This document shows positions 640 to 63,713 of a stretch of 64,000 nt of DNA, one piece after another (the first letter of the stretch is position 1; each line of letters starts with the position of its first letter). A program made the translations under genes and the position numbers. Origin of the DNA: an uncultured Trueperaceae bacterium. Lineage in GTDB: Bacteria > Deinococcota > Deinococci > Deinococcales > Trueperaceae. The notes beneath the pieces were generated by a model, which saw only the letters and a program-made list of their open reading frames with translations, was not told the DNA's origin and ran no database searches. The DNA lies in NCBI GenBank assembly GCA_963799485.1, contig CAWCXJ010000006.1, positions 1 through 64,000 of the forward strand, read 5' to 3'.

Positions 640-1144
640 ACTAGGACAGAGCCGCGAGTACGGCTGGGCAGCAAGCTGTGAGCGTGTTTGCAATACAAAA
701 GCTAAAGGCCAGAAAGAACGGGTTAGTTTGATTGCTGCAACCAGCTTGGACGGTATGATGGCAGAGCAAACGCTGGTCGTCTCGGACACGGTCAACAAAA
801 ATGCTTTCCTGGCTTTCCTCGAGTCCGTCCTGCTACCAACCCTTGCTAAAGGCAGCATTTTAGTTTTAGATAACTGGACTGTTCACCATGGTGAAGAGGT
901 TAGAGAACTGGTCGAACGCTTCGGTTGTGAACTCTTATATCTGCCGACCTACTCACCCGACCTAAACCCCATCGAACACCTTTTTGCTAAGCTCAAAGCC
1001 TTCATCAAAAGCCTGCGGCCTGACACGCAAGGCAACCTCATTCAAGCCTTTTGTGAAGCAGTCAAAACCGTGACTCCTATGCAAGTCCTCAATACCTTCG
1101 AGCATTGTGGTTATGAGGTGGAGCAGTAATTAGTGGAAATGCTA
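640..1144 (+). mobile_element. IS630-family transposase, C-terminal remnant (DDE_3), interrupted upstream by the IS5 element
   Basis: LGQSREYGWA...ILVLDNWTVHH...LYLPTYSPDLNPIEHLFAKLK are IS630 DDE motifs, stop at 1129. Putative right end CAGTAATTAGTGGAAATGC is followed by TA at 1143-1144 (IS630 targets TA). Confidence 0.85.
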
Positions 1145-2211
1145 AGCGTATAAATCTCCATTGCGACCCGTTCATTTGTGTGATCCAGACGTTTCGCGGT
1201 GATCTTCGGGCTGTAACGCCCTTCACGCAAAAGTTACGCCGTAAAATGGGTGTTGCTCACTTTACGCATCTCGTGCAGCGTGCTGGGCGTGAAGCCTAGC
1301 GCTTCTATCAGTGAGTCCCGCGCCCGGTAGACGTTTCGGGGTGTAAGCGAGTGCCCGTTCCAACTTGGAAACATGAGGTTGTTCGGTTCGTACCCTTCAC
1401 GCTCGGCAGCGCGGTTCATTCGGGCCATCTGGGTGCGGAACACCGCTGCAAGCTCGTCGGTGATCGGAATGACCCGGACGCTCGCCGGGGTTTTGGGTGT
1501 GTCGTGGTGTTCGCTCCCCTTGCCGTAATGCACGATCTGCTCGGTGATGTTCAGGACGAACTGAGCCCGACCCTTGACAGCGACACTTGAGAGCGCTTCG
1601 CGGCGCAGACCCAACAGCTCTCTACGGCGCAGCCCGGCCTCGAGCGCCGTAAAAAACAGCGGATACATGATGTTTTTAGGATGGGTGGGCCTCATAGCGG
1701 ACTCTCGCGAGGTTCAAAAATGCTTGCACCTGCTCGATACTCCATAGCGGATTGACCTTGCGCTTCGTTCCGGGCGGTCGTTTGATGTTATCCACGTCGT
1801 CACGTGAGACCAGGTGCAGGCGTCCGGCAGCCACCTCGGGCCGCTCTGTACCCGCTGCACGTCCTCGAGGGTCAGGGCCGAGAGCGCGAGTGAGCCGAGC
1901 GCAGGCTCGACGTTGCGGTTCCACATCTCGAGGTCGAAGATCGTCTTGGCCTTGTTGCCCTTGACCGAACGCTTATGCTGCACGAACTCGGCGAAGAGTT
2001 CTGTCACCGTATCGGCTTGTACGGGTACATTTTCGAGCCGCGCGACTTTCGCGTCGAGGTCTGCCGACGCTGCCGCTTTGGTCGGCCCGTAACCCGATAC
2101 CGGTTTAGAAGTCCCGTCCGGCAGGTGAGCCGTGCCCCGGTCGCGGTAGCGAGTGCCGGGGGTTCTGGCCTGAGCCCAGAGCTTAGCTGTTGATTTGCGG
2201 GCTCTGGGCAT
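1145..2211 (-). pseudogene. Tyrosine recombinase/phage integrase pseudogene
   Basis: Fragments in three frames: N-terminal arm/SAM-like part (1714-2211) and catalytic part (ALEAGLRRRELLGL...TPKTPASVRVIP...TLHEMR). After an in-frame TAA at 1234-1236 it continues LLREGRYSPKITAKRLDHTNERVAMEIYTL (catalytic H and Y), then is cut by the IS630 end. Confidence 0.85.
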
Positions 2212-2217
2212 GGGTGT

Positions 2218-2742
2218 TTAGGGGTTGGTCTCGGCGCTGTAGGGCTCGAGCCACGGTTGCGAATCGGCTTTTGCCGAGACCGGATTATCGCCTGGGTCGC
2301 CGACGTGGATATTTAGACCCGAACGAATCTGCACAAAGCCATTACCGCCAAAAACGTAATTCGGCGTAATCTCTAAAAACACACTGACGGCGCTTGCGGC
2401 GTCGAAGTCCAAACCGACAAAGCCGTCGATATAGACTCCCCCCGCGCTGCCCTCTGCGGCGTAACCGAGACCCGCACCGGTATAAAACACGATGCTGTCA
2501 CCAAAAGCGTAAAGCCCGTCAAGTCCTCCCTGCACAAACGAGTCCGCGCCATCTGAACCGAACTGCGCGAGCGCCCGGATTCCGAAGTCGTCATAAAGGT
2601 TGTAGGTGCCGAACTGAAGACCCGCAAGCCCGGTGGCGACTTCGCCGTTGTAGGCCACGCCGCCGGGAAAACCAAAGAAAAACCGCGCCTGCGCCGACGC
2701 AAAAAGAGCGAGCAGAACGGCGGCAAAAATGAGTTTACGCAT
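2218..2742 (-). CDS. Exported protein, probable small outer-membrane beta-barrel
   Basis: Signal peptide (MRKLIFAAVLLALFASAQA), Gly/aromatic alternating strands (FYTGAGLGY, VFLEITPNYVF), SD AAGGAG upstream. Confidence 0.65.
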   Translation of the reverse strand: MRKLIFAAVLLALFASAQARFFFGFPGGVAYNGEVATGLAGLQFGTYNLYDDFGIRALAQFGSDGADSFVQGGLDGLYAFGDSIVFYTGAGLGYAAEGSAGGVYIDGFVGLDFDAASAVSVFLEITPNYVFGGNGFVQIRSGLNIHVGDPGDNPVSAKADSQPWLEPYSAETNP

Positions 2743-3013
2743 AGGGACAACCCTCCTTAGGTTGTGCCTTAGGCGTAGGAATAAAGTGCAGGGCGGGTAG
2801 TAAAGAAGTTGGCATTTTTAAGAGTGGTTGCCGTTGATGACCTCGAGCCAGGTCAAGTGGTTCGAATAACTTTCGAGTAGCGCTTCCTCGCTTGTAATCC
2901 CACTCGAGCCCTGGTCCCGAGGGGTTGCCCGTAAAATCCCTACAGCGCGAGCAGCGGGTTGCGCTTTCCAAACGGCTACCAAAATCCACCTCAGCCCGTG
3001 CTAGCCTAAAGTC

Positions 3014-4483
3014 ATGCCAAGAGGCAGCAGGCTGACGTTCGACCGGGGAACGCTTGTGTTGCACCCGCCACCCAAAGGCAAAAGCTGGGTGGACTTTGTG
3101 ACGTGGGACGACCGCACCGAAAAGTTTCGGCTGCCTGCGTTTCACTACCGGGGTTTGCTCGAGGCCATGCGCGCCGAAGGTGTCGCGGTCACGGACAAAG
3201 CAAAGGGTTTTACGGCGCTTGAGCTTAAAGTGGGGCTCGAGCAAACCCCCTATCCGCACCAGCAAGAAGCACTAGCCGCGTGGCAGCAGGCCGGACGGCG
3301 CGGCGTCGTCGTCTTGCCGACGGGTGCGGGTAAAACCTATCTGGCACAGCTCGCCATGCAAACGACGCCCCGCAGCACGCTCGTTTTGGTACCTACCCTA
3401 GACCTGATGCATCAGTGGTACGCGCACCTCACCGCAGCTTTTCCCGACGCCGAGGTCGGACTGTTGGGCGGCGGCTCGAAAGACCGCACCGCAATTCTCG
3501 TCTCGACGTATGACAGCGCCGCGATTCACGCCGAAACGCTGGGCAACCGCTACGGTTTGCTGATTTTCGACGAATGCCACCACCTGCCGAGCGAATTTTA
3601 CCGGGTCGTCGCCGAGTACTCGCTCGCGCCCTACCGGTTGGGTCTAAGCGCCACACCCGAACGCAGTGACGGCAAGCACGAGACGTTAGGCGTGCTTATC
3701 GGGCCTATCGTTTACCGCAAAGAACCCGAAGATTTAGCGGGTGGTGCGTTGGCCGAACACCGCGTGGTGCAGCTCAAGGTCAAGCTCTCTGCGGAAGAAC
3801 GCAGCCGTTACGACGCGTGTATCGCTACGCGCAACGCTTTTTTGGGCAAACGTGGAATTCGGCTGGGGACGCTCGCGGGCTGGAGCTACTTCGTCCGCGA
3901 GAGCGCCCGCTCGTCAGAAGGCCGCGCCGCCATGCTCGCCCACCGTGAAGCGCGGACTTTGGCTTTCGGCACCGAAGGCAAACTGCGCGTATTGGCCGAC
4001 CTCTTGGCGCAGCACCACGGTGACAGGACGCTCGTTTTTACCGATGACAATGCGACCGTTTACCGTGTGTCGCAGGACTTTCTGCTCCCGGCGATCACCC
4101 ACCAGACCAAGGTCAAAGAGCGTCATGAAACGCTGAGCAAGTTTCGTTCGGGTGAGTATCCGGTACTTGTCACCTCGAAGGTCTTAAACGAAGGCGTCGA
4201 TGTGCCGGAGGCGAAAGTGGCGATTGTCCTTTCCGGGACGGGCTCGAGCCGCGAATACGTCCAGCGTTTGGGCCGTATTTTACGGCGGGGTGAGGGCAAG
4301 CTGGCGCTCTTGTACGAAGTTGTTGCCGAAGACACGAGCGAAGAGGGCGTGTCGAAACGGCGACGTGAACGGCCCGGTTCGGTTGCGGCTGCGTCCAAGG
4401 CCGCAGCCGGTAAATCGCCTGCCCAGCGCACGTTGTTCGCCCCCATTTCTGAAAGCGACGCGCTCGAGCTCGATGAGATTTGA
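3014..4483 (+). CDS. SF2 DEAD/DEAH helicase, XPB/Rad25 (Ssl2)-like
   Basis: LPTGAGKT, DECHH, LGLSATPER, LNEGVDVP and QRLGRILR motifs; adjacent to DUF790. Confidence 0.92.
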   Translation: MPRGSRLTFDRGTLVLHPPPKGKSWVDFVTWDDRTEKFRLPAFHYRGLLEAMRAEGVAVTDKAKGFTALELKVGLEQTPYPHQQEALAAWQQAGRRGVVVLPTGAGKTYLAQLAMQTTPRSTLVLVPTLDLMHQWYAHLTAAFPDAEVGLLGGGSKDRTAILVSTYDSAAIHAETLGNRYGLLIFDECHHLPSEFYRVVAEYSLAPYRLGLSATPERSDGKHETLGVLIGPIVYRKEPEDLAGGALAEHRVVQLKVKLSAEERSRYDACIATRNAFLGKRGIRLGTLAGWSYFVRESARSSEGRAAMLAHREARTLAFGTEGKLRVLADLLAQHHGDRTLVFTDDNATVYRVSQDFLLPAITHQTKVKERHETLSKFRSGEYPVLVTSKVLNEGVDVPEAKVAIVLSGTGSSREYVQRLGRILRRGEGKLALLYEVVAEDTSEEGVSKRRRERPGSVAAASKAAAGKSPAQRTLFAPISESDALELDEI

Positions 4484-4590
4484 AGATTCGGATACGGAGA
4501 CTTGGAACAGAAAAAGTCGTAACGGGGACAACATGACAGATTTAGACGTGATTTCAAAAGCAGCGCTGCCGACAAGTTCAGGACAAGCCT

Positions 4591-5817
4591 ATGCTCCCGA
4601 CTGAACTGCTGATGTTTCGCTACAGCGGCGAAGAGCTGTTGCCCAAACGCCTGAAGCACGACAAAACGACCCTGTTGATAGCGCAAGACATCATCGGTCT
4701 GTTCGAGCGGCATAAGGGGCAGCGGCGCGGCGAGCTGGATGAACAGTTGGAAGTGCTCGAGGGTGAAGCCACCGACTACCGCATGAAACGGGGTTTGGCA
4801 CATCTGCTCCGGAGTGGTTTTAGCACCTTTGAAACGGTGAGTCCTGTGGAGCCGCCCCTCCTGCGTGAACGCGTTTTCTCTCTTGCTGCCGCCGGGTTGC
4901 CGAGTCCGCAAAGAGCTAAAGCAACGCTTGAACGCGCCGCCGCCGCCCTCAGCGCCGAGCTTGGGCGCGAAGTTCACCCCGAAGAGGTCACGCGCGGGCT
5001 TTACGCCGACTTAGCCGAAAATCAGCGCCTGACCGACTTCGAGCCGCCCGACCCGAAAGCGCTCGTAGACCGTTACAACCTCTCGCAAGTGCAGGGCGTC
5101 TTGTACCGCGCCAAGCACGTGACGATCAACGCGCACCGCAACGACCCCGGTGAATATAAACTGCTCTTTCGTTACCTCAAACTGTTCGGCCTGATGAGCT
5201 ATATCGAAGGAGACGCCGACCACGGCTTTACGATTACTGTAGACGGCCCGGCGAGTCTTTTCGGCGGCAGCACCCGCTACGGGCTGGCGCTTGCCAAACT
5301 GCTTCCGGCGCTTTTACACGTCACCCGCTGGAGCCTCGAGGCCGACCTTATGCCGCGTACCCTTTACGACGGCACGACCACGCCCGCGAGGTTTACGCTC
5401 GAGTCGGGTTGTGGTCTCGTCTCCCACTACCCGCCCGGCAAGACGTACGACAGCATGGTCGAGGCGTCGTTCGCTGAGCGCTGGAGCAAAGCCAAAACCG
5501 AGTGGCAGCTCGAGCGTGAAGTCGACCTCGTGAGCATTCCCGGCAGTGTGATGGTTCCGGACTTTCGGCTCGTTCACCCCGACGGGCGTTCGTATCTGCT
5601 CGAGATCGTCGGGTACTGGCGACCTGAATACCTCAAAAAAAAGTTTGCCCAGGTCAAAAAAGCGCTGCGCGACGACCTCATCTTGGCGGTGTCTGAGAAG
5701 CTCAACTTGGGCGGAACAGGAATTAAACTCGACGACATCCCGGCAAAAATCGTCTGGTTTAAGGACAAACTGATTCCGAAGTCGGTGTTGTCGCTGTTGC
5801 CGCAAGACCCAGGCTAA
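4591..5817 (+). CDS. DUF790 family protein (Bax1-like PD-(D/E)xK endonuclease)
   Basis: MLPTELL start, LYADL, RYNLSQVQGVLY, DGPASLF...RYG, YDSMVEASFA, PDF...LEIVGYWRPEYL motifs typical of DUF790. Confidence 0.9.
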   Translation: MLPTELLMFRYSGEELLPKRLKHDKTTLLIAQDIIGLFERHKGQRRGELDEQLEVLEGEATDYRMKRGLAHLLRSGFSTFETVSPVEPPLLRERVFSLAAAGLPSPQRAKATLERAAAALSAELGREVHPEEVTRGLYADLAENQRLTDFEPPDPKALVDRYNLSQVQGVLYRAKHVTINAHRNDPGEYKLLFRYLKLFGLMSYIEGDADHGFTITVDGPASLFGGSTRYGLALAKLLPALLHVTRWSLEADLMPRTLYDGTTTPARFTLESGCGLVSHYPPGKTYDSMVEASFAERWSKAKTEWQLEREVDLVSIPGSVMVPDFRLVHPDGRSYLLEIVGYWRPEYLKKKFAQVKKALRDDLILAVSEKLNLGGTGIKLDDIPAKIVWFKDKLIPKSVLSLLPQDPG

Positions 5818-7640
5818 CCGACCGGTACAGTCTCTCCCCGAAACTGCTTTCGGTACAGCTCGGCGTACACGCCGCCCTGCGCCATAAGCTGCTCGTGCGT
5901 TCCCTGCTGCACGGTGCGCCCATCGTCTAGAACGATAATCTGGTCGGCGCTGCGAATCGTAGACAAGCGGTGAGCGATGACAAACACCGTGCGGCCTGCC
6001 ATCAGCGTATCTAGAGCTTCTTGTACCAAAGACTCGGATTCGGAATCGAGTGAACTCGTCGCTTCGTCCAGAATCAAGATGCGCGGGTCTTTAAGGAGTG
6101 CTCGTGCAATCGCCACGCGCTGACGCTGCCCGCCCGAGAGTTTGATGCCGCGCTCGCCCACAACCGTTTCGTAGCCGTCTGGAAACGCCGAGATAAAGCC
6201 GTGGGCGTTGGCAGCCTGTGCCGCAGATTCGACCTCCGCGTCCGTGGCGCCGGGCCTGCCGTAACGGATGTTGTCGCGCACCGTCCCCGAAAAAAGCTGC
6301 GTCTCTTGCGGGACGATACCGATGTGGGCGCGAAGCGCAAGCTCATCCAACTCGTGCAAATCCACGCCGTCCAAGGTGATGCGTCCGGCGGTCGGGTCGT
6401 AAAACCGGGGGATGAGCGACACCAGCGTGCTTTTGCCTGCGCCCGAAGGCCCGACGAGCGCCGTAATCTCACCGGGTTGGGCGGTGAGCGCGATGTGGTG
6501 AAGGACAGCCCGTTTGCCGCGCGTGTCGGCAGCGTCCGTTTCCGCGCCGTAACGAAACGACACGTTTTCAAAACGCACGAGGCCGCGCACTTTGTTCAGG
6601 GGCCGAGGTAAGGCGGGTGCGGACAGGTCACTCTTTTCTTCCAGAAGTTCAAAAATGCGTTTGGACGCGCCGAGCGCCTCTTGGAACTGGCTGTAAAGTC
6701 CGGTCAGTGAACCCACTGCGCCGGCGACGAAAAGCGTATAGAGGAGAAACTGCACCAGCTGTCCGGGCGTCAGTCCGCCACTTGTAACGAGCCGCCCGCC
6801 GACGTAGAGCACGACGCTAACCGCGCTGAACATGGCAAAGATGATACCGGAAAAAAACGCGGCCCGAAACGCGGCCCGTTTTAGGGCGATACGGTACGAG
6901 GCGTTGATTAAGGTGCCGTAACGCTCGGACTCGAGCCCTTCTGCCGTAAACGATTTGACGACCCGTACTGAGGTGATGGCCTCTTCCGCGCTTGCGTTCG
7001 CCTCGGCTATGCGGTCTTGAAACTCGGTGCTAAGAGCCCGCAGTTTGCGCCCGAAGATGCGCGCGCCGAACATCACCACCGGGACGACCAAAAGCATCAA
7101 TAAGGTCAACTGCCAGTTGGTCACGAACAAAAGCACAATACTGCCGACTAAAAGCGCCGTTTGATTGACAAGCTGCGCCAGCGCCTGCGACACCGCGCCC
7201 TGCACCACCGACGCGTCCGAGGTGAGCCGTGAGGTAATCTCCCCGGTGCGGCGCGTTTCAAAAAAACGAATCGGCAGGCTCATCAGGTGTTGGTAAAGAC
7301 GCCGGCGCAAATCGGCAACGACGCCCTCGCCGACCTGGGCAATCATATAGGTACGCAAAAAGTTAAACGCCGCTTGTACCAGAAATATCCCCAGCAAAAT
7401 CACGACGATACGGTTTAAGTTGGGCAGTGAAGCAGTATCCGACGCGACGAAGGTATCGAAAAAGCGCCGGACGACTTGCGGGACGGCGAGCGACAAGAGG
7501 CTTGCGACCCCCACGGCAAGCATCCCAATAATGAGTTGCAGCCGGTAGGGGCGGGTATAGGCGAAAAGCTTGCGGAGCTGACCGAAATCCGAAAATGAGC
7601 CTTTGGTTTCAGGGGAGGAGATACGGGGACGCGAACGCAT
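5814..7640 (-). CDS. ABC exporter, fused permease/ATPase (MsbA-like)
   Basis: Six-TM N-terminal domain, GPSGAGKS, LSGGQRQR, ILDEATSSLD. Confidence 0.93.
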   Translation of the reverse strand: MRSRPRISSPETKGSFSDFGQLRKLFAYTRPYRLQLIIGMLAVGVASLLSLAVPQVVRRFFDTFVASDTASLPNLNRIVVILLGIFLVQAAFNFLRTYMIAQVGEGVVADLRRRLYQHLMSLPIRFFETRRTGEITSRLTSDASVVQGAVSQALAQLVNQTALLVGSIVLLFVTNWQLTLLMLLVVPVVMFGARIFGRKLRALSTEFQDRIAEANASAEEAITSVRVVKSFTAEGLESERYGTLINASYRIALKRAAFRAAFFSGIIFAMFSAVSVVLYVGGRLVTSGGLTPGQLVQFLLYTLFVAGAVGSLTGLYSQFQEALGASKRIFELLEEKSDLSAPALPRPLNKVRGLVRFENVSFRYGAETDAADTRGKRAVLHHIALTAQPGEITALVGPSGAGKSTLVSLIPRFYDPTAGRITLDGVDLHELDELALRAHIGIVPQETQLFSGTVRDNIRYGRPGATDAEVESAAQAANAHGFISAFPDGYETVVGERGIKLSGGQRQRVAIARALLKDPRILILDEATSSLDSESESLVQEALDTLMAGRTVFVIAHRLSTIRSADQIIVLDDGRTVQQGTHEQLMAQGGVYAELYRKQFRGETVPVG

Positions 7641-7757
7641 TAATGGCAGTTTACGCCTGCTTATCTAAGAGTTTCGTTGCGGTGCTGCATAACGGGCGCG
7701 GGCGACGCTACCCGTGCGGGCGGGTTCACCCTGGACGGCTCTGCTTGTTAGGCTTAG

Positions 7758-9480
<1,723 letters not shown>

Positions 9481-9489
9481 GGCCAAACG

Positions 9490-9518
9490 AAAAGGGGGGA
9501 GACCGGCTCCCCCCTTTT
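9490..9518. terminator. Bidirectional intrinsic terminator
   Basis: AAAAGGGGGGAG-ACCGG-CTCCCCCCTTTT, perfect 12-bp inverted repeat between convergent genes. Confidence 0.85.
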
Positions 9519-9551
9519 ACTAAAAACGGAGGTTTACCCAACTTTCACTTC

Positions 9552-11485: not shown

Positions 11486-11511
11486 AGTGTGACCTCTCTT
11501 TATAGAAGACG

Positions 11512-11540: not shown

Positions 11541-11554
11541 ACGACACAGTAGCT

Positions 11555-13173: not shown

Positions 13174-14226
13174 TCAGGCTGCGTGCTGATCTGCCGGGTC
13201 TTCGTCTTCAGTCACTTCGTCTGCGCTTTTTACGTCACCTTCCGGGCCGAACAACCCGGATTGTGCGGGCGGGGTGTAGGTGTAGCCGAGGTGCGTGTAC
13301 GCCCGCTCGGTAGCGACGCGGCCCCTTTGCGTCCGGTTTAGGAGACCGTTTTGAATGAGAAACGGCTCGTAGACCTCCTCGAGCGTGTTGCCGTCTTCAC
13401 CGACGGCGGTCGCCAAGGTATTCACCCCGGTCGGCCCCCCCGCAAACTTGGTGATGAGCGTTTCTAAAATGACGCGGTCACGGGCCTCGAGGCCGAGTTC
13501 GTCGATGTCGAGTTCGTTTAGGGCGCTTCGGGCGCGCGCCGGACTTACGGTGTCTTCACCGGCGACCTCGGCAAAATCGCGGACGCGGCGGAGCAGGCGT
13601 TTGGCGATTCGCATGGTGCCCCGCGCCCGCCGACCGATCTCTAAAGCGGCGTCGGGGTCGATCTTGAAACCGAGCAGGTCGGCGTCGCGGGAAACACCGG
13701 CGGCGAGCTCTGCGGTGGTGTAGTACTCCAAATGTTCGATGATCCCGAAACGGCTGCGCATCGGCCCGGTGATGAGCCCCGAACGCGTCGTTGCACCGAT
13801 GAGCGTAAAACGCGGCAAATCGAGCCGAATGGTGCGCGCCGCCGGGCCTTGACCCAAGATGATGTCTACCTTGAAGTCTTCCATCGCCGGGTAGAGGTGT
13901 TCTTCAGCGACGCGGCCTAAACGGTGAATTTCATCGATAAAAAGCACGTCGCCGTCGTCCAAGGCGTTGGTCAAGATAGCTGCCAAGTCGCCGGGTTTTT
14001 CGATGGCGGGGCCGCTCGTGACGCGGATATTGACGCCGAGCTCAAAGGCGACGATATGCGCGAGGGTCGTTTTGCCGAGTCCGGGCGGGCCGTAGAGCAG
14101 CACGTGGTCGAGGGCTTCGCCCCGGTTTTTAGCTGCGCTCAGATAAACGCCCAGCTTTTCTTTGAGCTTTTTTTGACCCACGTAGTCGGCTAGCGAGCGT
14201 GGGCGCAGCGCACCGTCGAGTTCCAT
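13174..14226 (-). CDS. ruvB: Holliday junction branch migration helicase RuvB
   Basis: [46 protein letters not shown]. Confidence 0.97.
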
Positions 14227-24850: not shown

Positions 24851-26054
24851 ATGAAAATTACTGTGCTGACCAACGAATATCCGCCGCACATTTACGGCGG
24901 CGCGGGCGTCCACGTCGAGTACCTGACCAAAGAGCTGGTCAAGCTGAGCCCCGGCGAAATTGACGTTTTCGCGTTTGGCGACCAGGACGTTCACGAGGGT
25001 TCACTGCACGTCGAGGGTGTCGAACCCGAAACCAAGTTGGAGGCCCAAGACCCGCGTCACGCCAAAGTTTTGGACACGCTGCAACGCGACCTCATCATGG
25101 CGGGCAAAGCCGGGGCGAGCGACATCGTGCATTGCCACACGTGGTACACGCATTTTGCGGGCTGCCTGGTGCAGCAGTTGCAAGGGGCCAAACTCGTCTT
25201 GACGACGCACTCGTTGGAGCCGCACCGCCCCTGGAAAGTCGAACAACTCGGCAGCGCATATCACGTGAGCAGTTGGGTAGAGAAAACCGCCTTCCAAAAC
25301 GCCGACGGCGTAATTGCGGTGTCGCAGTCGATGAAGCGCGATGTGCATGAGCTTTACGGCGTACCCGAAGAAAAAATCGCGGTGATTCCCAACGGTATCG
25401 ACCTAGACGAATACCAGCCGACCTTCGACGAGGCGGTGCTGAAACACTACGGTATCGACCCGTCCCGGCCTTTTGTGCTGTTTGTCGGACGTATCACCCG
25501 GCAAAAAGGCATTTTGCACCTCGCCAACGCGCTCAAGTACCTGCCGAACGATACGCAGGTGGTGCTCTGCGCGGGCGCACCCGACACGCCTGAAATCGGT
25601 GAGGAGATGAAAGGCCGGGTCAAAGCGGCGCACGAAGCCGGGGCCGAACGGGTTATCTGGTTGCAGGAGATGGTGCCGCGTCGAAGACATCATCAAGCTC
25701 TACAGCCATGCGGCGCTGTTTGTGTGCCCGTCGGTGTATGAACCCTTTGGGATTATCAACTTGGAGGCGATGGCGTGCGAGACGCCGGTGGTGGCCTCGG
25801 CGGTCGGCGGCATCCCGGAAATCGTCGTACCCGGTGAGACGGGAACGCTCGTCTCGTTTGACGTGGGCGACGACTTCGAACCCGAAGACCCGGACAAGTT
25901 CGCGCATGATTTGGCCGACGCCATTCAAGAGTTGCTAGCCGACCCGGCGCAGCTTGAAAAGATGGGCAAAGCGTCTAGGGCGCGGGTCGAAGAGAAGTTC
26001 AGCTGGAAGGCGGTGGCGGAGGAGACGCTGACGTTTTATCGGTCGCTGCTCTAG
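24851..26054 (+). pseudogene. glgA: GT4 glycogen synthase/GlgM-type glycosyltransferase, one frameshift near 25678-25682 (possibly assembly error)
   Basis: TNEYPPHIYGGAGVHV, HCHTWY, HSLEPHRPWK, FVGRITRQKG; second frame CPSVYEPFGIINLEAMAC. Confidence 0.88.
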
Positions 26055-27663
26055 CTTTGCCCCGGTAGTAGCGCCTGTCGCGGAGCGAGTGGGCTGCCCG
26101 CCGTAAAACCGTACAGTCGGACTGGCTTAAACCAAGCTGTCCCCGTAAAAACACCCGGTCGGCTAAGTTTTGAGCCTCGTCAATCTTGCCCTGCCGTAAA
26201 AGTGCGTCTAGTTCAGCCTCGAGCCCCCCAAACTCGCCTTCCGGCGCGGCTATCAGCACCCGCCGCGCTTCGCCGGGCTCGAGCTTGAGCATCCCGCCGC
26301 CCAGAGCGTGACCTTCTAGTTCAACGCTTAAACTCGTCAGCGAAGTCTGCCAAAATGCCGCCAGGGCTCTCGCCGGAACCGTCACGTCGGGCCGAAAACG
26401 AACGACGTGCAGCGTATTCGGTGCAGCGGCTCCGGCGTCGTTCGCCACGAGTTGCGGTCTGAGCCCGCTCATATAGGTGAGAAACGCGTCCGGCGTGTAG
26501 ACGTGCGGGACGCGGTACCAGGGGGTTCGGACACGGCACTTGTACGCTTGCGGGACGCCCCCGGCTTCGCCTTGCTTCAGGTAAGTCTCGAGTCCCTTGG
26601 TCAGTACGTCGCCTGTGACGTTGAGGAGATACCCTGCATTTTTTGCTTCTGAAACCTTCCAGTCGGTTTCGGTAAACGCCAATCCGGTAAGTGCTGCACC
26701 ACGAAACACGGCGCGTTTGAGGTGTTCGTCGGAAAGTCCTAGTTCGGCCCCGCAAGCCGGACTCAGGTGAAAAAAGCTGTTCGCACCCGTAACGTAGCCG
26801 ATACCCACGTCGGCTAACGTGCCGAGTTTTGAAACTTGTGGATGCTCTAATAGCTTTTTGTACAACGCCCTCGCTTCGGGCGGTAAAAGCTGCATGATGA
26901 GCTTCTCCTGTCCACCGGCGAGCGCCGTAAAAGCTAGTTCGGTCGCATTTTGCAAAATCTTGTCTACGGGCTGAGCGAGCGTTTCACCTTTGTCCAGGTC
27001 GCGCCAGAAAAGGCTGTTTGAAACGCCACCTTTAGCTTCTGCCAGCAGCAGCAGCGTGTCCTGGCTGATGTCCGGGAAAAGCCGCTCCTTAAAGCTCAGC
27101 AGGGTAACGCACCCAAACGTTTGCGTGAGGTGCTCCAAAACAGGCCGCGCGTAAGCTGCGTGCGCCAGCTCCGCCGGAACGACCATTCCGAGTCGCCCGC
27201 CGGGTTTGAGAAACGCTGCGCTACAAACGACAAACGCAGCCCACGAACTTGCACGTTTAGTCAGCGTGACGCCCTGCGCTTTGGCCCGTGACGAGGCCAA
27301 GGTGCTGTTAAAACTTTGATAGCGGATAAAGGGGGGATTGCCGACAACGGCGTCCAAAGGGGGTAAACTACCGAGTGCTACCGTAAAAAAGTCAGACTTG
27401 ATGAGATTATCCGGTGAGATGCTTGTCAGCTCTTCGGAGACTCAAGCATGAACCTCGCCGTCCAATTCAACGCCGTAAACCTGCCGCTCGTCCCCGCCGA
27501 GGTCGCGTAAACGCGCCGCCGCCGCCGCTAGAAAAACACCACCGCCGAAACTCGGGTCTAAAACGGTTTCTCCCGGTTCACGCACCGCCCACCGCACTAA
27601 AAAGTCGGCAACCACCGCGTCCGTGTAGAACGCGCCGAACGCCTTGGCCCGCCCTGAGTCCAC
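25999..27663 (-). pseudogene. N6-adenine DNA methyltransferase, MamA(Rv3263)-like, orphan; single in-frame TGA at 27442-27444
   Basis: GAFYT, LDPSFGGGVF, GVEL, then after the stop in the same frame DFF...GNPPFIRY, VVPAEL, DVGIGYVTGANSFF, AYKCRVRTPW, GGGMLKLEP, LRDRR. No restriction endonuclease adjacent. Confidence 0.85.
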
Positions 27664-52694: not shown

Positions 52695-52696
52695 AT

Positions 52697-55355: not shown

Positions 55356-55386
55356 GACCGCTCGAGCCGCTCGGAAATCCCGTAGG

Positions 55387-55755: not shown

Positions 55756-55762
55756 AGTTCTC

Positions 55763-56536: not shown

Positions 56537-56698
56537 AGGAACATTATGCCTTATTCGCGGCGTGCCCGGTACAGGCCAGGACGTTTTTACGTGACGGACG
56601 CGCCCCAGGTCGTTCTTTGGGCAAGCTGTGGTGGCGAGTGCAAGGTAAGGCAACGTCCGGGGCGGCGCGTCCCCGTAAAGTAAGCCCTGGAGGGCAAG

Positions 56699-57511
56699 AT
56701 GAAATACGTCAACGTTCAAGGGGTGTCGGTGCCGGCGCTCGGTTTGGGTACCTGGGATTTGCGCGGCGAAAACTGTACCGAAGCGGTTTTGCACGCGCTT
56801 TCGCTCGGTTACCGGCACATCGATACGGCGCAAGGCTACGACAACGAAGAGTTTGTCGGCGAAGGGTTGCAAAAAGCCGGTATTTCCCGCGAAGAGATTT
56901 TTTTGGTAACGAAGATCAAACCGGACAACTTCAGCCGTGAACAGGTACTTGTCAGCACCGCCGAAAGCCTCGGCAAGCTGCAGACCGACTATGTAGACCT
57001 GCTGCTGCTGCACTGGCCCAACCCGGACGTACCACTGGGTGAAACGCTGGGGGCAGTTTTAGAGTTGCGCGAACAGGGTGCAGTGCGGCATATCGGCGTC
57101 AGCAACTTTCCCTCGAGGCTGGTGGGCGAAGCTCAGGAAATCGCGCCCATCTTTGCCAATCAGGTCGAGTATCACCCGTATTTGGGGCAAGAAGTGTTGC
57201 GCGAGCAGGCGAAAACGCAAGACTATCTGCTGACCGCTTACAGCCCCATCGCGCAAGGTAAGGTCACGGGCGACCCGGTACTTGAAGAAATCGGTGAGGC
57301 GCACGGCAAAAGTCCGGTTCAGGTGACGCTGCGCTGGCTGCTGCAGCAAGACCAGGTGGCGGCCATTCCCAAGTCCGCGTCGGAGAAAAATCGCGTCAGC
57401 AATTTTGAGATTTTCGACTTTGAACTTTCCGAAGGCGAGATGGCGCGTATCTTCGCTTTGGCGCGTGCTGAGCGGATGGTTGCGCCGGAGGACGGGCCGG
57501 ACTGGGATTAG
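56699..57511 (+). CDS. Aldo/keto reductase
   Basis: [41 protein letters not shown]. Confidence 0.93.
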
Positions 57512-57550
57512 CCGGGGTTAAACGTCGAAAGCCGGGGCTCGAGTCCTGCT

Positions 57551-57907
57551 TTAGTGCGGGTTCTCGAGCTTTAGCGGTGCTTCGACCTTTAGGTCGGGAG
57601 CGCGTGAATCTTGAATCACCTGATGAACCTCCAGCACGTTGCGCCCGGAAAACGCCTCTTTCGGCAGGGTACTGCTCTTGGCGTGCCCTTCACGAAACGC
57701 CTCAGAACTCGTCCACGTTTCAAAACTCGCGTAAGACTCCCAATAAGTGAGGACGATGTACGGTTGACCCGCGCTACTTGGACGCAGCACCTGATTAAAC
57801 AAAAACCCCGGCATACTGTCGACGAGTCCGGCACGGTTGGCAAAACGTTCTTCAAAGGCTTCGGCGTAGTCGGGATTGACGAAAATGCGGTTGGCGACGC
57901 TGATCAC
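57551..57907 (-). CDS. Antibiotic biosynthesis monooxygenase family (IsdG/HmoA-like)
   Basis: NRI.V......FEERF..R....PGF, WES...F..W..SEAF...H. Confidence 0.85.
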   Translation of the reverse strand: MISVANRIFVNPDYAEAFEERFANRAGLVDSMPGFLFNQVLRPSSAGQPYIVLTYWESYASFETWTSSEAFREGHAKSSTLPKEAFSGRNVLEVHQVIQDSRAPDLKVEAPLKLENPH

Positions 57908-58165
57908 AAGAACCTCCAGAACTTTAGCGTAGCACTGATTTTCTGTGCCTGAGCACTTTTACGACGAACCGTTGCCGCTCAGGGTCGGCTTCAGGGTGTG
58001 CCGGTTCTCACGGGGCTGTAAGTTAAGGGAAACTCGACGTTTCGGTAAGCACTCAAGACCGGAATCAGCTCAACAGAAAGACAACCCCCAAACTTCTACC
58101 GACAAGTTCAGGGTGACGTGTATAAGGTTTGGGCTCGAGCTGGCTTCAGGCTGTAGACTAAAATC

Positions 58166-59140
58166 GTGCCGGACGAACCTACTCAGCCGCAGGTAGCAAA
58201 ATCCTGCTGCGCGGTTTCTCGAGCCGCCGGCGACGTTCAGGTTCCTGCTAACGCCGCGCCGACACCTATTAAAGCGCGGAGCCGACTGGCAGAAGGCACT
58301 ACCGACATGGTGCAGCTTCCGGGCGGACGTTTTCTGATGGGTAGCGAAGACGACAGCTTTCCAGGAGACGGCGAAGGTCCGGTTCGTGAGGTTACGCTCA
58401 GACCCTTCTGGATCGACCGCTACGCCGTCACCAACGCTGCCTTTGCCGAGTTCGTCGAAGCGACAGGTTATCAGACCGAGGCGGAACACTTCGGCTGGTC
58501 GTTCGTTTTTTACGGCCTTTTGCCCGAGGACTTTCCGCCGACGCGCGGCGTCGCGCAAACCCCGTGGTGGCGACAGGTTTACGGCGCAAGCTGGGCGCGT
58601 CCGGAAGGGCCACAATCTTCTGTAAATAAGCGCCTCGACCATCCGGTCGTCCACGTTTCGTGGAACGACGCGGCGGCGTATGCAAGGTGGCTGGGTAAAC
58701 GGCTGCCGACCGAGGCCGAATGGGAGTTTGCCGCGCGGGGCGGTTTGGAAGGCAAACGCTATCCGTGGGGCGACCGGCTCACGCCGGACAAAAAACACCG
58801 CTGTAACATCTGGCAGGGGACGTTTCCGACAAAAAATACCGGCAAAGACGGATTTTACGGGACTGCGCCGGTTGACGCGTTCGAGCCGAACGGCTACGGA
58901 CTCTATAACGCGGTCGGCAACACCTGGGAGTGGTGCCGGGACTTCTGGAGCCCGGACTATCGCCTCGGCGGTGCCTGTGAAAACCCGTCAGGGCCGCCCG
59001 CAGGAGCAACGAGAGTCGTCAAGGGTGGGTCGCACCTTTGTCACGCGTCGTATTGCAACCGTTACCGCGTTGCGGCCCGGACGCACAACACGCCGGACAG
59101 CACACTCGGGCACACGGGGTTTCGGCTGGTACGCAGTTAA
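58166..59140 (+). CDS. Formylglycine-generating enzyme (sulfatase-modifying factor)
   Basis: HPVVHVSWNDA, RLPTEAEWE.AARGG, GNTWEW, GGSHLCHASYCNRYRVAAR (both catalytic Cys). Confidence 0.92.
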   Translation: MPDEPTQPQVAKSCCAVSRAAGDVQVPANAAPTPIKARSRLAEGTTDMVQLPGGRFLMGSEDDSFPGDGEGPVREVTLRPFWIDRYAVTNAAFAEFVEATGYQTEAEHFGWSFVFYGLLPEDFPPTRGVAQTPWWRQVYGASWARPEGPQSSVNKRLDHPVVHVSWNDAAAYARWLGKRLPTEAEWEFAARGGLEGKRYPWGDRLTPDKKHRCNIWQGTFPTKNTGKDGFYGTAPVDAFEPNGYGLYNAVGNTWEWCRDFWSPDYRLGGACENPSGPPAGATRVVKGGSHLCHASYCNRYRVAARTHNTPDSTLGHTGFRLVRS

Positions 59141-60072
59141 CTCCGAGCTTCGGCGAGCGCTCTCTCGGCTTCTGCCAACGTTGGTTGATAGGTCGTGCCG
59201 CCCGCGCCGCGCGCCGAAAGCGAACCGCACGCACAGGCAAGTCTTAGAGAACGCTCGAGCGCCCATCCCCCAAGGTACCCGTACAAAAAGCCGGCGTTAA
59301 ACGAATCACCCGCCCCGGTGGTATCGACGATTTCGACTTTCAGGGGCGGAGCCGTCACGCTCTGCTCACCCTGCCGCGCCACTGCGCCCTGCGCGCCTGC
59401 TTTGACGGCAATCGTCGGTACTTGTACGCCCAGAGTAGCCAACGCAGCCTCGAGTTCTGCTTGCCCGGTAATTTTGAGCAATTCTTGTTCGTTCGGCAAA
59501 AATACGTCGCAAACCGGCCAGAGCTTTGTCAAACCAGTGTCCCAGCGCCCGCTCGGGTCCCAGTTGGTATCTAACGAAGTGCTAAGGCCCTGCGCTTTGG
59601 CCCGCCCGAACAGCTCGGGCAGGTCGCGGCGGAGCGACTCGAGGAGAAAATAGCCACCGACATGAAGGTGGCGGGCGCGGGCCAGCACCTTCATGTCAAT
59701 GTCGCCGAGGCCGAGCCTGGCGATACTTCCGGGAAAGGTCAGGATGGCGCGGTCGGCGGGTTGCGAGAGGATGACGCTAAACCCCGTTTGTACCGAAGTG
59801 TCTACTTGGCAGCTCGCGGTGTCGATACCTCGAGCGCGCATCGCGTCCAGCATAAAGCGACCGAATATGTCGTCCCCGACAACCCCGGTAAATGCGGTTC
59901 GAAGCCCCAAACGCGCCGCGCCGCAGGCGACCATCACCGACGATGAGCCGATAGTGAGTAGGGCGTCGTCAACGAGCTTTTCAGCCTGCCCGAAGGCGGG
60001 CGTCAGGTCACCGCCGCGCAAGATGAGGTCGGGGTTGATTTCACCAACGACGAGGAGGTCGTACTCAAGCAT
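59137..60072 (-). CDS. PfkB family carbohydrate kinase
   Basis: VGDDIFG, FLPNEQE, DTTGAGDSFNAG; SD AAGGAG. Confidence 0.92.
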   Translation of the reverse strand: MLEYDLLVVGEINPDLILRGGDLTPAFGQAEKLVDDALLTIGSSSVMVACGAARLGLRTAFTGVVGDDIFGRFMLDAMRARGIDTASCQVDTSVQTGFSVILSQPADRAILTFPGSIARLGLGDIDMKVLARARHLHVGGYFLLESLRRDLPELFGRAKAQGLSTSLDTNWDPSGRWDTGLTKLWPVCDVFLPNEQELLKITGQAELEAALATLGVQVPTIAVKAGAQGAVARQGEQSVTAPPLKVEIVDTTGAGDSFNAGFLYGYLGGWALERSLRLACACGSLSARGAGGTTYQPTLAEAERALAEARS

Positions 60073-60109
60073 TACCAAGTCTCCTTTTGAAATCGTCACC
60101 TAAAAAGTC

Positions 60110-60506
60110 CCGGCACCCGCTCGAGAAGTTGTACTGCCAGCGCCGCTGCTTGGCTGCCGCGCCGTCTACAACTGTCCGCCGCAAGGTGTAGCTACCTGTA
60201 AAATGCCGCGCTCCGCCGGTCGTGGGCTGAGATAGTGACCGGGACGGTGACGTATCTCGAGCCCGCCGCCCCCTCCACCCGCCCCGGTTTGCCGACCTTT
60301 ACGGCGACGCGCGCCGTTTCTGCAAAGCCCGCCGTAAACTCTCTAAACGTCTGCCCACTCGCCGCGCCGTTTCCGCTCCACAAGTTGTAAGCCTGCCGAA
60401 ACTTATGAGCGTTGATGGCGGTGTAGTAGCTTTGGATGACGGCGACGGGTGAGGTTAGAGGCGTGGGGCTCGAGGTCACAGATACTTGGGACACTGGGGT
60501 ACACAT
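60110..60506 (-). pseudogene. Fragmented hypothetical (exported-type) protein
   Basis: YYTAINAHKFRQAYNLW...EGAAGSRYVTVPV; after a frameshift near 60215 a second frame reads HFTGSYTLRRTVVDGAAAKQRRW; no clear start. Confidence 0.5.
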
Positions 60507-60573
60507 CCAAAACTGAGTACGGAAAAAAGCAGACCGAAAAGCGTGTTCATCCCGGTATGTTAGCGCCTCGACC

Positions 60574-61905
60574 CTAAGCGTTCACTCTTTCCGGCTCCGG
60601 GTTCATAAACGCCGGTAAGTACGCCTTTTGCGCCGCCGCCATCTCGTCAAACATGCTGCGGATTTCCTCTAACGAACAAACCGCCGCCGTCAGCGGGTCA
60701 ATCATCAGGGCGTGAACGGCGGCTTCGCGGTCTCCCTCCAAAACTGCGGTCGCCACCAGGTCGTGAAACGCCATGTGCGGCTGGTCTAAGGCCGCCAGAT
60801 GCGTCGGCAGTGAGCCGAAATGCGTCGGTTGCACACCTTTCTTATCCACCAGACACGCCACCTCGACCACGCCTTGCGGCAAATTATCGATCAGGCCGGT
60901 GTTCGGCACGTTGCCGTAAATCACCTGCGGTTTGCCCGTTTCCATACTTTCGATGATGTACGACGCATATTCGGGGCCACGCGCCATGTCGAAGTCTTCT
61001 CTGCCTGCCATCGCGCTTTCCAACTCGTGAAGGTATTCTTCTCTCCACCTCGGCCAGTTGTTCGCGTAGTAGCCGCTCTCGCCCTCGTAGCCGCTCCGCA
61101 TGTACTTTTCGATGAGGTCGGGGCGTTTACGAAAGTAGGCGGTGTATTCGGACGTATGCCCGCTCGATTCGGTGACGAACGCGCCCAGGTGTTTCATCAT
61201 CTCGAAGCGCACCGGGTCGCGTTCGTAGATTTCGGGGTGTTGTTTGATGCGTTCCCGTAAAACAGGGTAGAGGTCTTGTCCGGCGCGCCCCAACCTCACA
61301 ATCCACGCCAGATGATTGATCCCCGCCCCCTGCCAGTCGATCTCTTCGTAAGGGATATCCAAGTATTCGGCGAGCTGATGCGTCGTGTGCTGAATGCTGT
61401 GGCAGAGTCCGACAATCGGCAATTTTGATGCTCTCACGCCGGTTAAAACGGTTAGTGACATCGGGTTGGTGTAGTTCAGCACCAGCGCGTTCGGTGCGAG
61501 CCTTTCGGTGTCCCGTAAAATCTCTATCCAGGCGGGCAACGTCCGCAAAGCCTTGAATAAACCCCCCGGCCCGATGGTGTCGCCGATGCACTGGTCAACG
61601 CCGTACTTTAACGGAATGTCGTAGTCGTGCCGGACGTTTTCCAGCCCCGAAACCTCAACCGAGTTAATCAGATAATCCGTACCGGGCAAGAGTTTCGTTC
61701 TATCGGTTGAGGCTTCGACGTTCCAGTTGCGACCCGTTTTGCTGACGAGCCACTCGGTCATCTTGTGAGCGACCTCGAGCCTACTTTCGTCTATATCAAC
61801 TAAGGCAAACGTTCCGGTCTCGAGTCCCGGCGTCGCCAGAATGTCTTTGATAATTTCGGCAGCAAATACAGCGCTGCCTGCGCCTATGAGCGTTACTTTG
61901 GGCAT
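60574..61905 (-). CDS. melA: GH4 NAD+-dependent alpha-galactosidase/glucosidase
   Basis: LIGAGSAVF, DIPLKYG, DTIGPGG, LNYTNP, GLCHS, GINH. Confidence 0.9.
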   Translation of the reverse strand: MPKVTLIGAGSAVFAAEIIKDILATPGLETGTFALVDIDESRLEVAHKMTEWLVSKTGRNWNVEASTDRTKLLPGTDYLINSVEVSGLENVRHDYDIPLKYGVDQCIGDTIGPGGLFKALRTLPAWIEILRDTERLAPNALVLNYTNPMSLTVLTGVRASKLPIVGLCHSIQHTTHQLAEYLDIPYEEIDWQGAGINHLAWIVRLGRAGQDLYPVLRERIKQHPEIYERDPVRFEMMKHLGAFVTESSGHTSEYTAYFRKRPDLIEKYMRSGYEGESGYYANNWPRWREEYLHELESAMAGREDFDMARGPEYASYIIESMETGKPQVIYGNVPNTGLIDNLPQGVVEVACLVDKKGVQPTHFGSLPTHLAALDQPHMAFHDLVATAVLEGDREAAVHALMIDPLTAAVCSLEEIRSMFDEMAAAQKAYLPAFMNPEPERVNA

Positions 61906-61999
61906 GAGGTTCCTTTCAGAAGTTAGGAGGAAGAAGGGAGAATACAGAATGCAGAATTGAGACTTTTACGTTCTCCCTCCTGTGTTCTACATTCTGCTT

Positions 62000-62830
62000 T
62001 TACTTCACCCCCGAGAGCGCAATCCCTTCGATAAACTGCTTTTGTGCGAAGAAAAAGACAATCACAATCGGCGCGATGCTGACCGTCACGCCCGCCATCA
62101 TCACCGCCCAGCGCCCGCTGTACTGCGCCTGAAAGAGTGCCAGCCCGACGGGTAGGGTGGTCTTCTCCAAATCGCTCGGCAGGTAGATTAGGGGGCCGAA
62201 GAGGTCGTTCCACGAGAACAAGAAGGTAAAAATCGCCAGCGCCGCCAGCGCCGGACGTGCCAGCGGCAGGTAGATACGCCAGTAGATTGTCCACAGCGAC
62301 GCGCCGTCAATCCGGGCCGCTTCTGCGAGTTCGCCGGGAATCGTCAGAAAGTATTGCCGTAAAAGAAACGTCCCGAACGCGCCGCCTAAAAATGCGGGTA
62401 GGTACAAGGGAATCTGCGTACCGTAAAGCCCCAAAAAGCGGTAGATGATGAAGTTGGGAATCAAGGTCACCTGAAAGGGGATCATCAGCGTCACCAGCAG
62501 CAAGACGAAGAGCGCGTTACGGCCCCGAAACTTTACGGCGGCAAAGGCGAAGCCCGCCATCGAACAGGTTAAAAGTTGGCCCAGCGCCGAGAGCGAGGCG
62601 ATTTTGAAGCTGTTCCAGATAAGCCGGGTAAACGGGAGTGCGTCCCAGAGGCCGGTGTAGTTATCAAGCGTCACCGGGTCGGGGATGAGCGTGCGCGAGA
62701 ACTGGTCGGCGGGTTCTTTGAGCGACGTTGAAATCATCCACACGAACGGCCCAGCCATGATGAGTGCGCCAAAAATGAGAAGCGTGTAGGTTAGGGCGTC
62801 GAATAAGCGGTCTCGAGTTTTTATGCTCAC
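62000..62830 (-). CDS. Carbohydrate ABC transporter permease
   Basis: LAEAARIDGA, FSWNDLFGPL. Confidence 0.92.
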   Translation of the reverse strand: MSIKTRDRLFDALTYTLLIFGALIMAGPFVWMISTSLKEPADQFSRTLIPDPVTLDNYTGLWDALPFTRLIWNSFKIASLSALGQLLTCSMAGFAFAAVKFRGRNALFVLLLVTLMIPFQVTLIPNFIIYRFLGLYGTQIPLYLPAFLGGAFGTFLLRQYFLTIPGELAEAARIDGASLWTIYWRIYLPLARPALAALAIFTFLFSWNDLFGPLIYLPSDLEKTTLPVGLALFQAQYSGRWAVMMAGVTVSIAPIVIVFFFAQKQFIEGIALSGVK

Positions 62831-62831
62831 A

Positions 62832-63713
62832 TCACACCACCCAGCGCCGCTGAATGCGGAAATACACAAGCGTCAGGACGAAGATGATCAGCGCCAGCAC
62901 GATAGCTTGGGCGCTCGCTTGGCCCATGCGGAAGTAGTTGAAGCCGTTGCGGTAGATGGTAAAAACCAGGGTCGGGGTGGTGGAGCCACCGCTCGAGGTG
63001 CGCGTCAGGATATAGATGTATTCAAAAACCTGAAACGCGTTGATGGTCGAAATCACCGCCTGAAAAAAGATGCTCGGGACGATTAAAGGCAAGGTAACGT
63101 TGGTGAGCCGTTGCCACCCGCTTGCCCCGTCGAGTTTGGCGGCTTCGTAGTAATCACGTGGGACTGCTTGCAGTCCGGCTAAGAAGATAATCATCCCTTC
63201 ACCGATTGCACCCCAGATATTGACGACCGTGACCGAATAGAGCGCCATATCGCGGCCCAGCCAGCGCACCGGACTACCGCCCAGAGACGTGATGAGGGTG
63301 TTTAACAGCCCGTTGTCTTGCGCGTAAATCCACGTCCACAAAAGCCCGATGGCCACCGACGACGAGATGACCGGCAAAAAGAACAACACCCGAAAAAAGC
63401 TGACGCCGCGAATTTTACGGTTTAGGAGCAGCGCCACGATAAGCGACAAGACGATGACGCCGGGCACGTACATGGCGGCGAACTGCGTGGTGATGCGTAA
63501 GGACTGCAAAAAGAGCCGGTCGGTCGGCAGCGCCAGATAGTTTTGCAACCCGGCCCACGTCGGCGGCGTTAAGAGGTCCCACTCGAGCAAGCTGATAGCA
63601 GCGCTCGCTACAACCGAGCCGACCGCGCCGAACAGAAGCCCCAAGAGCGTCGGTGCGAGCAAGAGGAGCAGCCAGAGCCGCTCACGTCCCAGAGGTTTAA
63701 TCCCGCTCTGCAT
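62832..63713 (-). CDS. Carbohydrate ABC transporter permease
   Basis: IFLAGLQAVP..YYEAAKLDGA. Confidence 0.92.
   Translation of the reverse strand: MQSGIKPLGRERLWLLLLLAPTLLGLLFGAVGSVVASAAISLLEWDLLTPPTWAGLQNYLALPTDRLFLQSLRITTQFAAMYVPGVIVLSLIVALLLNRKIRGVSFFRVLFFLPVISSSVAIGLLWTWIYAQDNGLLNTLITSLGGSPVRWLGRDMALYSVTVVNIWGAIGEGMIIFLAGLQAVPRDYYEAAKLDGASGWQRLTNVTLPLIVPSIFFQAVISTINAFQVFEYIYILTRTSSGGSTTPTLVFTIYRNGFNYFRMGQASAQAIVLALIIFVLTLVYFRIQRRWVV

Follow-up and report, generated by a model that had tools for sequence, protein, structure and literature searches.

Genomes with highly iterated palindromes (HIPs) are described as carrying some 1,000–2,000 of these per Mb (PMC4390886), and HIP1 (GCGATCGC) and the alternate HIPs of cyanobacteria are short palindromes, present at 1–2 copies per kb, that are found alongside orphan methyltransferases (PMC4390886, PMC5861425). 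HIP1 is described in PMC5861425 as confined to cyanobacteria. Its function has been without consensus for decades. The Chi sites of RecBCD and AddAB (GCTGGTGG in E. coli, AGCGG in B. subtilis; 10.1101/2021.07.08.451572) are likewise frequent short words. CTCGAG, the palindrome studied here, is the target of XhoI/PaeR7I-type restriction-modification systems, and the TaqI target TCGA is nested within it; the orphan enzymes M.Mru1279II, M.Mch9957IV and M.Mhy14884I belong with these systems (PMC4752239), and homologous methylases occur across the Deinococcales. The same word, again linked to an orphan methylase, forms clusters at replication origins in Nocardia (PMC4752239). We find that CTCGAG is a HIP-like word in a 64,000-nucleotide stretch of DNA (the window; positions 1 to 64,000 of contig CAWCXJ010000006.1, assembly GCA_963799485.1) from an uncultured Trueperaceae bacterium, in the rest of that genome (G000) and in most of the order. 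A literature search, with REBASE and subscription journals outside its reach, returned no report of genome-wide CTCGAG enrichment in Deinococcota and none linking such enrichment to AddAB.

CTCGAG is the commonest hexamer in the window, with 124 copies dispersed over positions 818..63587 (the first starts at 818, the last at 63582; as a palindrome it has no strand), where base composition predicts 20.2 and an order-2 Markov model 25.2. Of these copies, 87, 5 and 10 lie in the three coding frames and 22 are intergenic. The original prediction, made from the letters of the window alone, had counted about 120 copies against about 20 expected, at roughly 2 per kb, and this density holds for the whole genome: its 3.66 Mb in 15 contigs contain 7,252 sites, or 1.98 per kb (1,984 per Mb), which is 4.68 times the order-2 expectation. 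CTCGAG is the top hexamer genome-wide, its density is 1.51–2.07 per kb on all 15 contigs, and most other six-base palindromes are depleted. Among the palindromes strongly avoided in the genome are TTTAAA, with 22 sites in 3.66 Mb (0.02 times expectation), CGGCCG (0.07), GGCGCC (0.08), CGATCG (0.08) and the four-base GATC (0.43).

CTCGAG density around gene boundaries is flat at about 2 per kb, falling only around start codons and rising in a single bin immediately before stops, and this flatness rules out clustering at promoters or terminators. The 22-base context is unique at 6,965 of the 7,252 genomic sites, and the window has no Rfam match; together these rule out a repeat element or RNA family. 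The longest gaps free of CTCGAG are mostly stretches of lower GC and low coding score, plus one with a 23S rRNA motif match.

To determine the effect of codon usage, we used our own dicodon gene caller, which gave 3,404 genes in the genome, 2,697 of them high-scoring and used for the codon tests, and 63 in the window. Leu-Glu codons had been predicted to be insufficient to explain the excess, and indeed they are. The 63 window genes contain 102 CTCGAG, while 300 synonymous-codon shuffles that keep the proteins gave a mean of 28.3 and a maximum of 43. Genome-wide, the ratios of observed to shuffled counts are 3.2, 9.6 and 4.1 in the three frames. Since a dicodon-preserving shuffle retains in-frame CTC-GAG pairs by construction, we relied on the off-frame and intergenic counts instead of that shuffle. 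All 11 positions that had been named as intergenic lie outside our gene calls; the intergenic DNA of the window has 22 sites in 7,843 bases, and intergenic density genome-wide is 1.4–2.1 per kb, 4.6–6.9 times expectation, so that the enrichment persists where there are no codons. In-frame Leu-Glu accounts for 4,654 of the 5,691 coding sites (82%), and there too the word overrides codon choice: GAG makes up 97% of Glu codons after CTC compared to 35–81% after nine other codons, and the in-frame neighbour most depleted is CTCGAA (0.12). Usage of CGA, a rare Arg codon, climbs from 4% to 42% in places where it makes up the word. Even amino acid choice is shifted, Leu being 0.51 of hydrophobic residues before Glu and 0.39–0.42 before Asp, Gln, Lys and Arg. 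At degenerate positions, the base that makes the site is favoured with an odds ratio of 3–35, and this preference extends to every one of the six positions and to transversions no less than transitions (the value at position 3 is too low because its background includes CTCGAG sites).

The word is six bases long. Frequent extension to GCTCGAGC or GGCTCGAGCC had also been noted, and the window does contain 25 and 5 copies, respectively, but GCTCGAGC is at 0.96 times its maximal-order expectation genome-wide, and a G precedes in-frame CTCGAG at a rate of 0.69, barely above the 0.57–0.65 of controls. The longer consensus GCTCGAGC was thus ruled out, with no enrichment beyond six bases, and CTCGAG is favoured at the level of DNA.

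The sites are also conserved beyond what codon controls predict. We compared G000 with 400 kb each of two genomes of its genus, G217 and G160, in 385 aligned stretches with a fourfold-site identity of 0.56–0.60. Where Leu-Glu is kept, CTCGAG is identical in 776 of 957 cases (0.81, both directions counted), whereas 21 other dicodons reach 0.62 at best. CTC-GAG faces CTC-GAA in only 5 of 781 cases, while the corresponding mismatch for Glu after eight other codons is 10–43%. At distances of more than 6 bp from conserved sites, synonymous divergence shows no reduction. As read from aligned sequence, this conservation would fit selection and biased conversion alike and does not separate them.

CTCGAG sites repel one another within about 100 bases. 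In G000, gaps between sites are more even than in permutations (coefficient of variation 0.935 versus 0.997±0.009), and the pairwise odds ratios are 0.28 at 9–15 bp, 0.73 at 18–30 bp and 0.80 at 33–60 bp, the latter two each non-significant singly; most control dicodons give values of 1 or more. G217 and G160 share the dip (0.66–0.73 at 7–60 bp). An apparent rise in Leu-Glu occupancy from 0.27 to 0.62, extending to at least 400 bp, was reduced to short range in the pairwise test, and we dropped the idea of a long-range spacing.

By its density, its over-representation in all frames and between genes, and its conservation between genomes, CTCGAG works like a HIP, as the original prediction proposed, but it is not HIP1. 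It is a different word, of six bases and 67% GC, where the cyanobacterial words are GCGATCGC or at least 75% GC, and it occurs in another phylum, in a genome in which CGATCG is depleted to 0.08. Its enrichment of 4.7 times, or 15–20 times at most in relatives, compares to 15–300 times for HIP1, under a null model that differs from that of Xu et al. HIP1 shows periodicity at 10–90 kb, and CTCGAG none at 8–150 kb on the four largest contigs (376–754 kb; P 0.11–0.46) by a simple spectral test that is not the method of Xu et al. Finally, its methylases, described below, are interchangeable and dispensable. In comparison to XhoI/PaeR7I and TaqI systems the target shows enrichment instead of avoidance, with most of the nucleases lost or broken, and in comparison to Nocardia, where there is a local cluster with 5-methylcytosine (m5C) and Vsr, the word is genome-wide and without Vsr.

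To place the window, we used ruvB (13174..14226, minus strand) as a taxonomic marker; its best named matches are Truepera sp. at 87–97% identity, with Truepera/Trueperaceae closest. We then examined 251 genomes in five families with inferred labels: Trueperaceae (f1), Deinococcaceae (f2), a Marinithermaceae-like family (f3), Thermaceae (f4, with genera g34, Thermus, and g37, Meiothermus, also inferred) and an uncultured family (f5). CTCGAG is favoured in four families of the order and depleted in the Deinococcus family. Median density per kb is 0.096 in f2 (70 genomes), 1.32 in f1 (71) and 6.2 in f5 (19). In samples of 18–400 kb from 25 genomes, the ratio of observed to expected counts (O/E) is 0.12–0.61 in four f2 genomes and 1.3–15 in the 21 others, with f5 samples at 14–15. 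Most Trueperaceae loci have 0.7–2.7 sites per kb at GC contents from 39% to 72%; strength varies widely, many high-GC Trueperaceae loci being only 1.1–2.8 times enriched, and O/E is 4.6–20 in 12 sampled loci or genomes at 39–52% GC. The Meiothermus phage MMP17 has 86 sites (3.9 times). The enrichment is thus real and order-wide and offers a testable lead to its cause, for which addAB mutants and methylomes are already available. An order-spanning counterpart of HIP1 that includes cultured, transformable thermophiles provides a natural gradient, from depletion to more than 6 sites per kb, and CTCGAG may matter for DNA construction in Thermus and Meiothermus genetics.

Genus g34 avoids TCGA, and CTCGAG makes up 84–96% of the TCGA that remains in three of four sampled genomes and 98% in a fifth. 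Thus, in four of the five sampled g34 genomes (L305-L311, L403-L404), nearly all TCGA lies within CTCGAG and survives an apparent avoidance of TaqI sites. The hexamer GAGCTC is near-absent in f5, with at most 25 copies in 16 of the 19 genomes.

The original prediction linked the enrichment to an orphan methyltransferase, and the window does encode a candidate. MT-A (25999..27663, minus strand) is an orphan gamma-class DNA methyltransferase gene for N6-methyladenine (m6A), with the domains Eco57I (PF07669) and M_Eco57I_C (PF22837), and it is interrupted by an in-frame TGA at codon 74 (27442..27444, minus strand), between the S-adenosylmethionine-binding motif and NPPF. No other internal stop occurs in the 30 orthologous loci, and the sequencing-run contigs compared with the window do not extend over this one. 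It may be an assembly error, because about 8 distinct G000 genes show stops or frameshifts among 211 relative proteins compared. MT-A is a reasonable candidate for the CTCGAG methylase, with CTCGAG as its putative target. There were no clues to its specificity from a solved relative, informative names or PADLOC; its plasmid and phage homologues are at most 40% identical and unannotated, and it is B-type queries, rather than MT-A, that match a predicted CTCGAG methylase region on the megaplasmid of M. extorquens AM1. Two further families, MT-B (PaeR7I/XhoI-type) and MT-C (a TaqI homologue), are only 19–24% identical to MT-A, and neither was found in G000. Our order-wide survey covered m6A enzymes.

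In the Thermaceae, the three families partition the genomes: MT-C is in 34, MT-A in 19 and MT-B in 9, with zero overlap and 62 of 68 genomes covered (three of the genes are in pieces). Within genus g37, 19 genomes have MT-A, 6 have MT-B, none has both and 1 has neither (Fisher P 3e-5, with kin not independent). Methylase replacement and nuclease decay are seen in progress: G172 (L103, L158) has an MT-A lacking its first 110 residues and an intact MT-B directly upstream. In the same-genus genome G016 (L161), MT-B is followed by an XhoI-like nuclease with a frameshift; none of the other MT-B loci, 20 in all, has a remnant of this kind. Published methylomes bear out the predicted methylation in part. 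CTCGAG is reported to carry m6A at 94–99.5% in Marinithermus hydrothermalis, Meiothermus chliarophilus and M. ruber, for none of which a cognate nuclease is given (Blow 2016, PMC4752239), but it is absent from the five motifs given for Meiothermus silvanus (PMC4752239). In C. chliarophilus, the sole stand-alone Eco57I-family methylase is MT-B (L134). A 2026 hot-spring methylome preprint describes CTCGAG and TCGA as shared in one host-phage group.

Enrichment also occurs without these enzymes. The 19 f5 genomes have no strong match to MT-A, MT-B or MT-C, and no shared Eco57I-type gene was found in f5 among the 30 loci listed; all four genomes of genus g43 lack the three families and still have about 2.5–3.4 sites per kb; and five enriched genomes (G054, G129, G023, G038, G208) have no Eco57I-family (PF07669) match at all. 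In the Trueperaceae, MT-A or MT-B is present in 20 of 22 genomes with a CTCGAG/GAGCTC ratio of at least 4, versus 21 of 49 below it, but density with and without these enzymes is alike (1.40 versus 1.29 per kb, P 0.16). Since a number of enriched genomes lack all three families, methylation seems to play a protective or modulating part and not to be the cause.

Outside the order, a nuclease-like gene adjoins the 3′ side of MT-A in 53 of 80 metagenome loci (one BLAST-linked cluster, and a slight overcount through opposite-strand open reading frames). This partner (L092:848-1564; L173-L252), of about 230–290 residues, belongs to no Pfam or PADLOC family and appears distantly XhoI-like, with an N-R-x-E-E-A-x-G-like motif in common with the XhoI family and a weak match (E 0.13–0.23). 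It is present in 2 of 30 Deinococcales MT-A loci and was not found in G000. Nor was an XhoI nuclease found in G000, either by a family search, which was positive in no control genome, or by direct tblastn. No Vsr gene was found in G000, and its two strong m5C methylase matches look prophage-borne.

The spread of CTCGAG tracks AddAB more closely than any one methyltransferase. G000 encodes an intact-looking addB-addA pair (contig C7:196,019-201,071), and its AddB model (predicted local distance difference test score 89) has B. subtilis AddB for all five of its best fold matches (E 9e-27). The family PF12705 proved too broad for AddAB profiling. Counting AddA at E ≤1e-30, native AddA is present in 67 of 70 f1, 22 of 23 f3, 67 of 68 f4 and 18 of 19 f5 genomes (174 of 180), and in f2 only 6 of 70 genomes have matches, all weak (1e-31 to 1e-36). 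Thermus is described as having addAB and Deinococcus as lacking it (PMC11143384, PMC9751324). The Trueperaceae genome G121 (96% complete, 48% GC) has no native AddA and a CTCGAG O/E of only 1.25, compared to the 4.6–20 of the 12 loci or genomes sampled at 39–52% GC.

A tentative interpretation, the one we pursue here, is that CTCGAG serves as a palindromic Chi-like signal for DNA-end processing, with AddAB as the leading candidate reader. It resembles Chi in being a frequent short word in genomes that encode AddAB, with which it is co-distributed at the family level; it differs in being a perfect, unpolarised palindrome that is methylated in some species. On this view most Deinococcales would have inherited CTCGAG from their ancestors as a recognition word at the level of DNA. 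Its reader would be the end-processing machinery of homologous recombination, and, because it is a palindrome, it would be active in both directions. A more specific form of the proposal, which we regard as rather doubtful, is that CTCGAG stops the AddAB of Deinococcales, that biased repair between chromosome copies brought it to high density, that three interchangeable methyltransferases shield it, and that the Deinococcus family gave it up on losing AddAB. AddAB would degrade a broken end until the first CTCGAG and stop there. On a chromosome copy without the site, resection would run on further, and the lost stretch would be restored from a site-bearing copy, which itself would keep the site, so that in polyploid cells (T. 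thermophilus is reported to be polyploid) conversion would be biased toward the site whatever the base change. Selection may keep the gaps between sites short; a second site within about 100 bases would add little, and a site with another nearby would be shielded by it. The methyltransferases may be interchangeable passengers from decayed restriction-modification systems, kept for shielding thousands of sites from XhoI/TaqI-type nucleases and perhaps modulating the signal. In cyanobacteria, HIP1 is reported to raise recombination-dependent transformation even when unmethylated, and more so when methylated (Kamoku and Nielsen, 10.1101/2024.09.10.611283). If true, a palindromic Chi would put a name to the reader of a highly iterated palindrome and supply the word that Thermus AddAB recognises.

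A number of observations weigh against this interpretation. The correlation of AddAB with CTCGAG comes mostly from a single loss, that in the ancestor of f2, with G121 in addition; other genes that f2 has lost could match it equally well. Three genomes have AddA and little enrichment (G142, O/E 1.58; G006, 1.17; G136, 1.28), and three fragmented assemblies that lack a native AddA match are nevertheless enriched or rich in sites (G241, 10 times; G099, 3.2 times; G184). The G000 AddB has 772 residues versus about 1,150 in B. subtilis, some 380 fewer, and at 12–13% identity the Chi-binding residues could not be mapped. Known Chi words are non-palindromic (10.1101/2021.07.08.451572) and unmethylated, and deletion of plasmid-borne addAB homologues is reported to leave the HIP1 effect in Synechococcus PCC 7002 (10.1101/2024.09.10.611283). 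Pairwise repulsion is about 1 and non-significant beyond 60 bp, and the spacing dip is weak in pooled distant loci. Moreover, the preference at all positions and the short-range repulsion, which fit the AddAB mechanism, would also fit selection for a bound protein.

Such a bound protein, putatively an abundant one of the nucleoid or of chromosome organisation that the Deinococcus family has lost, with selection acting on site density, is an explanation that we consider unlikely. It accords with sites spread evenly over contigs and across gene boundaries, with densities in most Trueperaceae loci that hold over a wide range of GC, and with the strong avoidance below about 18 bp, which resembles a protein footprint, and Xu et al. 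argue for such a role of HIP1 (PMC5861425); the lack of 8–150 kb periodicity on the four largest contigs speaks against it, as does the fact that no candidate protein was identified. Somewhat more credible, if still improbable, is methylation as the cause, as in Elhai's model for HIPs: m6A at CTCGAG would steer strand choice in repair or gene conversion, or mark self DNA in transformation, thereby creating and protecting sites, and genomes without the enzyme would be recent losses with a slowly decaying legacy. The methylation in three cultured relatives, the exclusive partition of MT-A, MT-B and MT-C in the Thermaceae and Meiothermus, the truncated MT-A beside MT-B in G172 and the association of MT-A or MT-B with high CTCGAG/GAGCTC ratios in the Trueperaceae all favour it. 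This model has difficulty with f5, the densest family, and with g43, both enriched apart from the three families, with the broken MT-A of G000 itself, with the similar densities in Trueperaceae genomes that have and lack the enzymes, and with synonymous divergence that is not lowered around conserved sites.

Less probable again is that CTCGAG is a self-driving uptake sequence, spread by natural transformation. The overriding of codon choice and the shift of amino acids toward Leu before Glu speak for it, as does the scarcity of sites in lower-GC stretches of low coding score, and methylated non-homologous HIP1 is reported to aid transformation (10.1101/2024.09.10.611283). Yet the repulsion has a reach of tens of bases where fragment lengths would be expected, and competent Deinococcus avoids the word. 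The uptake sequences known to us are longer and not palindromic, which also counts against this explanation. There is very little chance that the excess is a by-product of Leu-Glu codon usage, of a repeat element or of Vsr repair of deaminated methylcytosine. It could draw on the large share of coding sites that are in-frame Leu-Glu, on the depletion of CTCGAA, and on the Vsr-linked CTCGAG m5C systems described in Nocardia (PMC4752239), but the frame, intergenic and transversion results refute it: the word is enriched 4–10 times off-frame and 4.6–6.9 times between genes, CGA is recruited to complete it, and contexts are unique. Vsr very-short-patch repair was itself ruled out as the cause, there being no Vsr gene in G000, where the m5C methylases are apparently prophage-borne, and no transition-only bias, transversions being disfavoured as transitions are.

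A second word, the non-palindromic CCGTAA, is over-represented 2.7 times genome-wide (GCCGTAAA, 6.7 times), with 74 CCGTAA and 55 TTACGG in the window. Its copies are clustered, not repelling, and have no clear strand polarity in 50-kb bins; it ranks second in G160 as well. Elsewhere in the window, positions 3014-5817 (plus strand) hold genes for an XPB-like helicase and then a Bax1-like endonuclease; the models of this pair are archaeal, and both matches are below cut-off. A treC-like gene (7791-9480) is split over two frames, possibly by assembly error, and the same may apply to glgA (24851-26054), which is frameshifted, a contig of run X2 being one base short at 25683. A split IS630 transposase lies at 334-1129, and ten more partial copies are found elsewhere in the genome.

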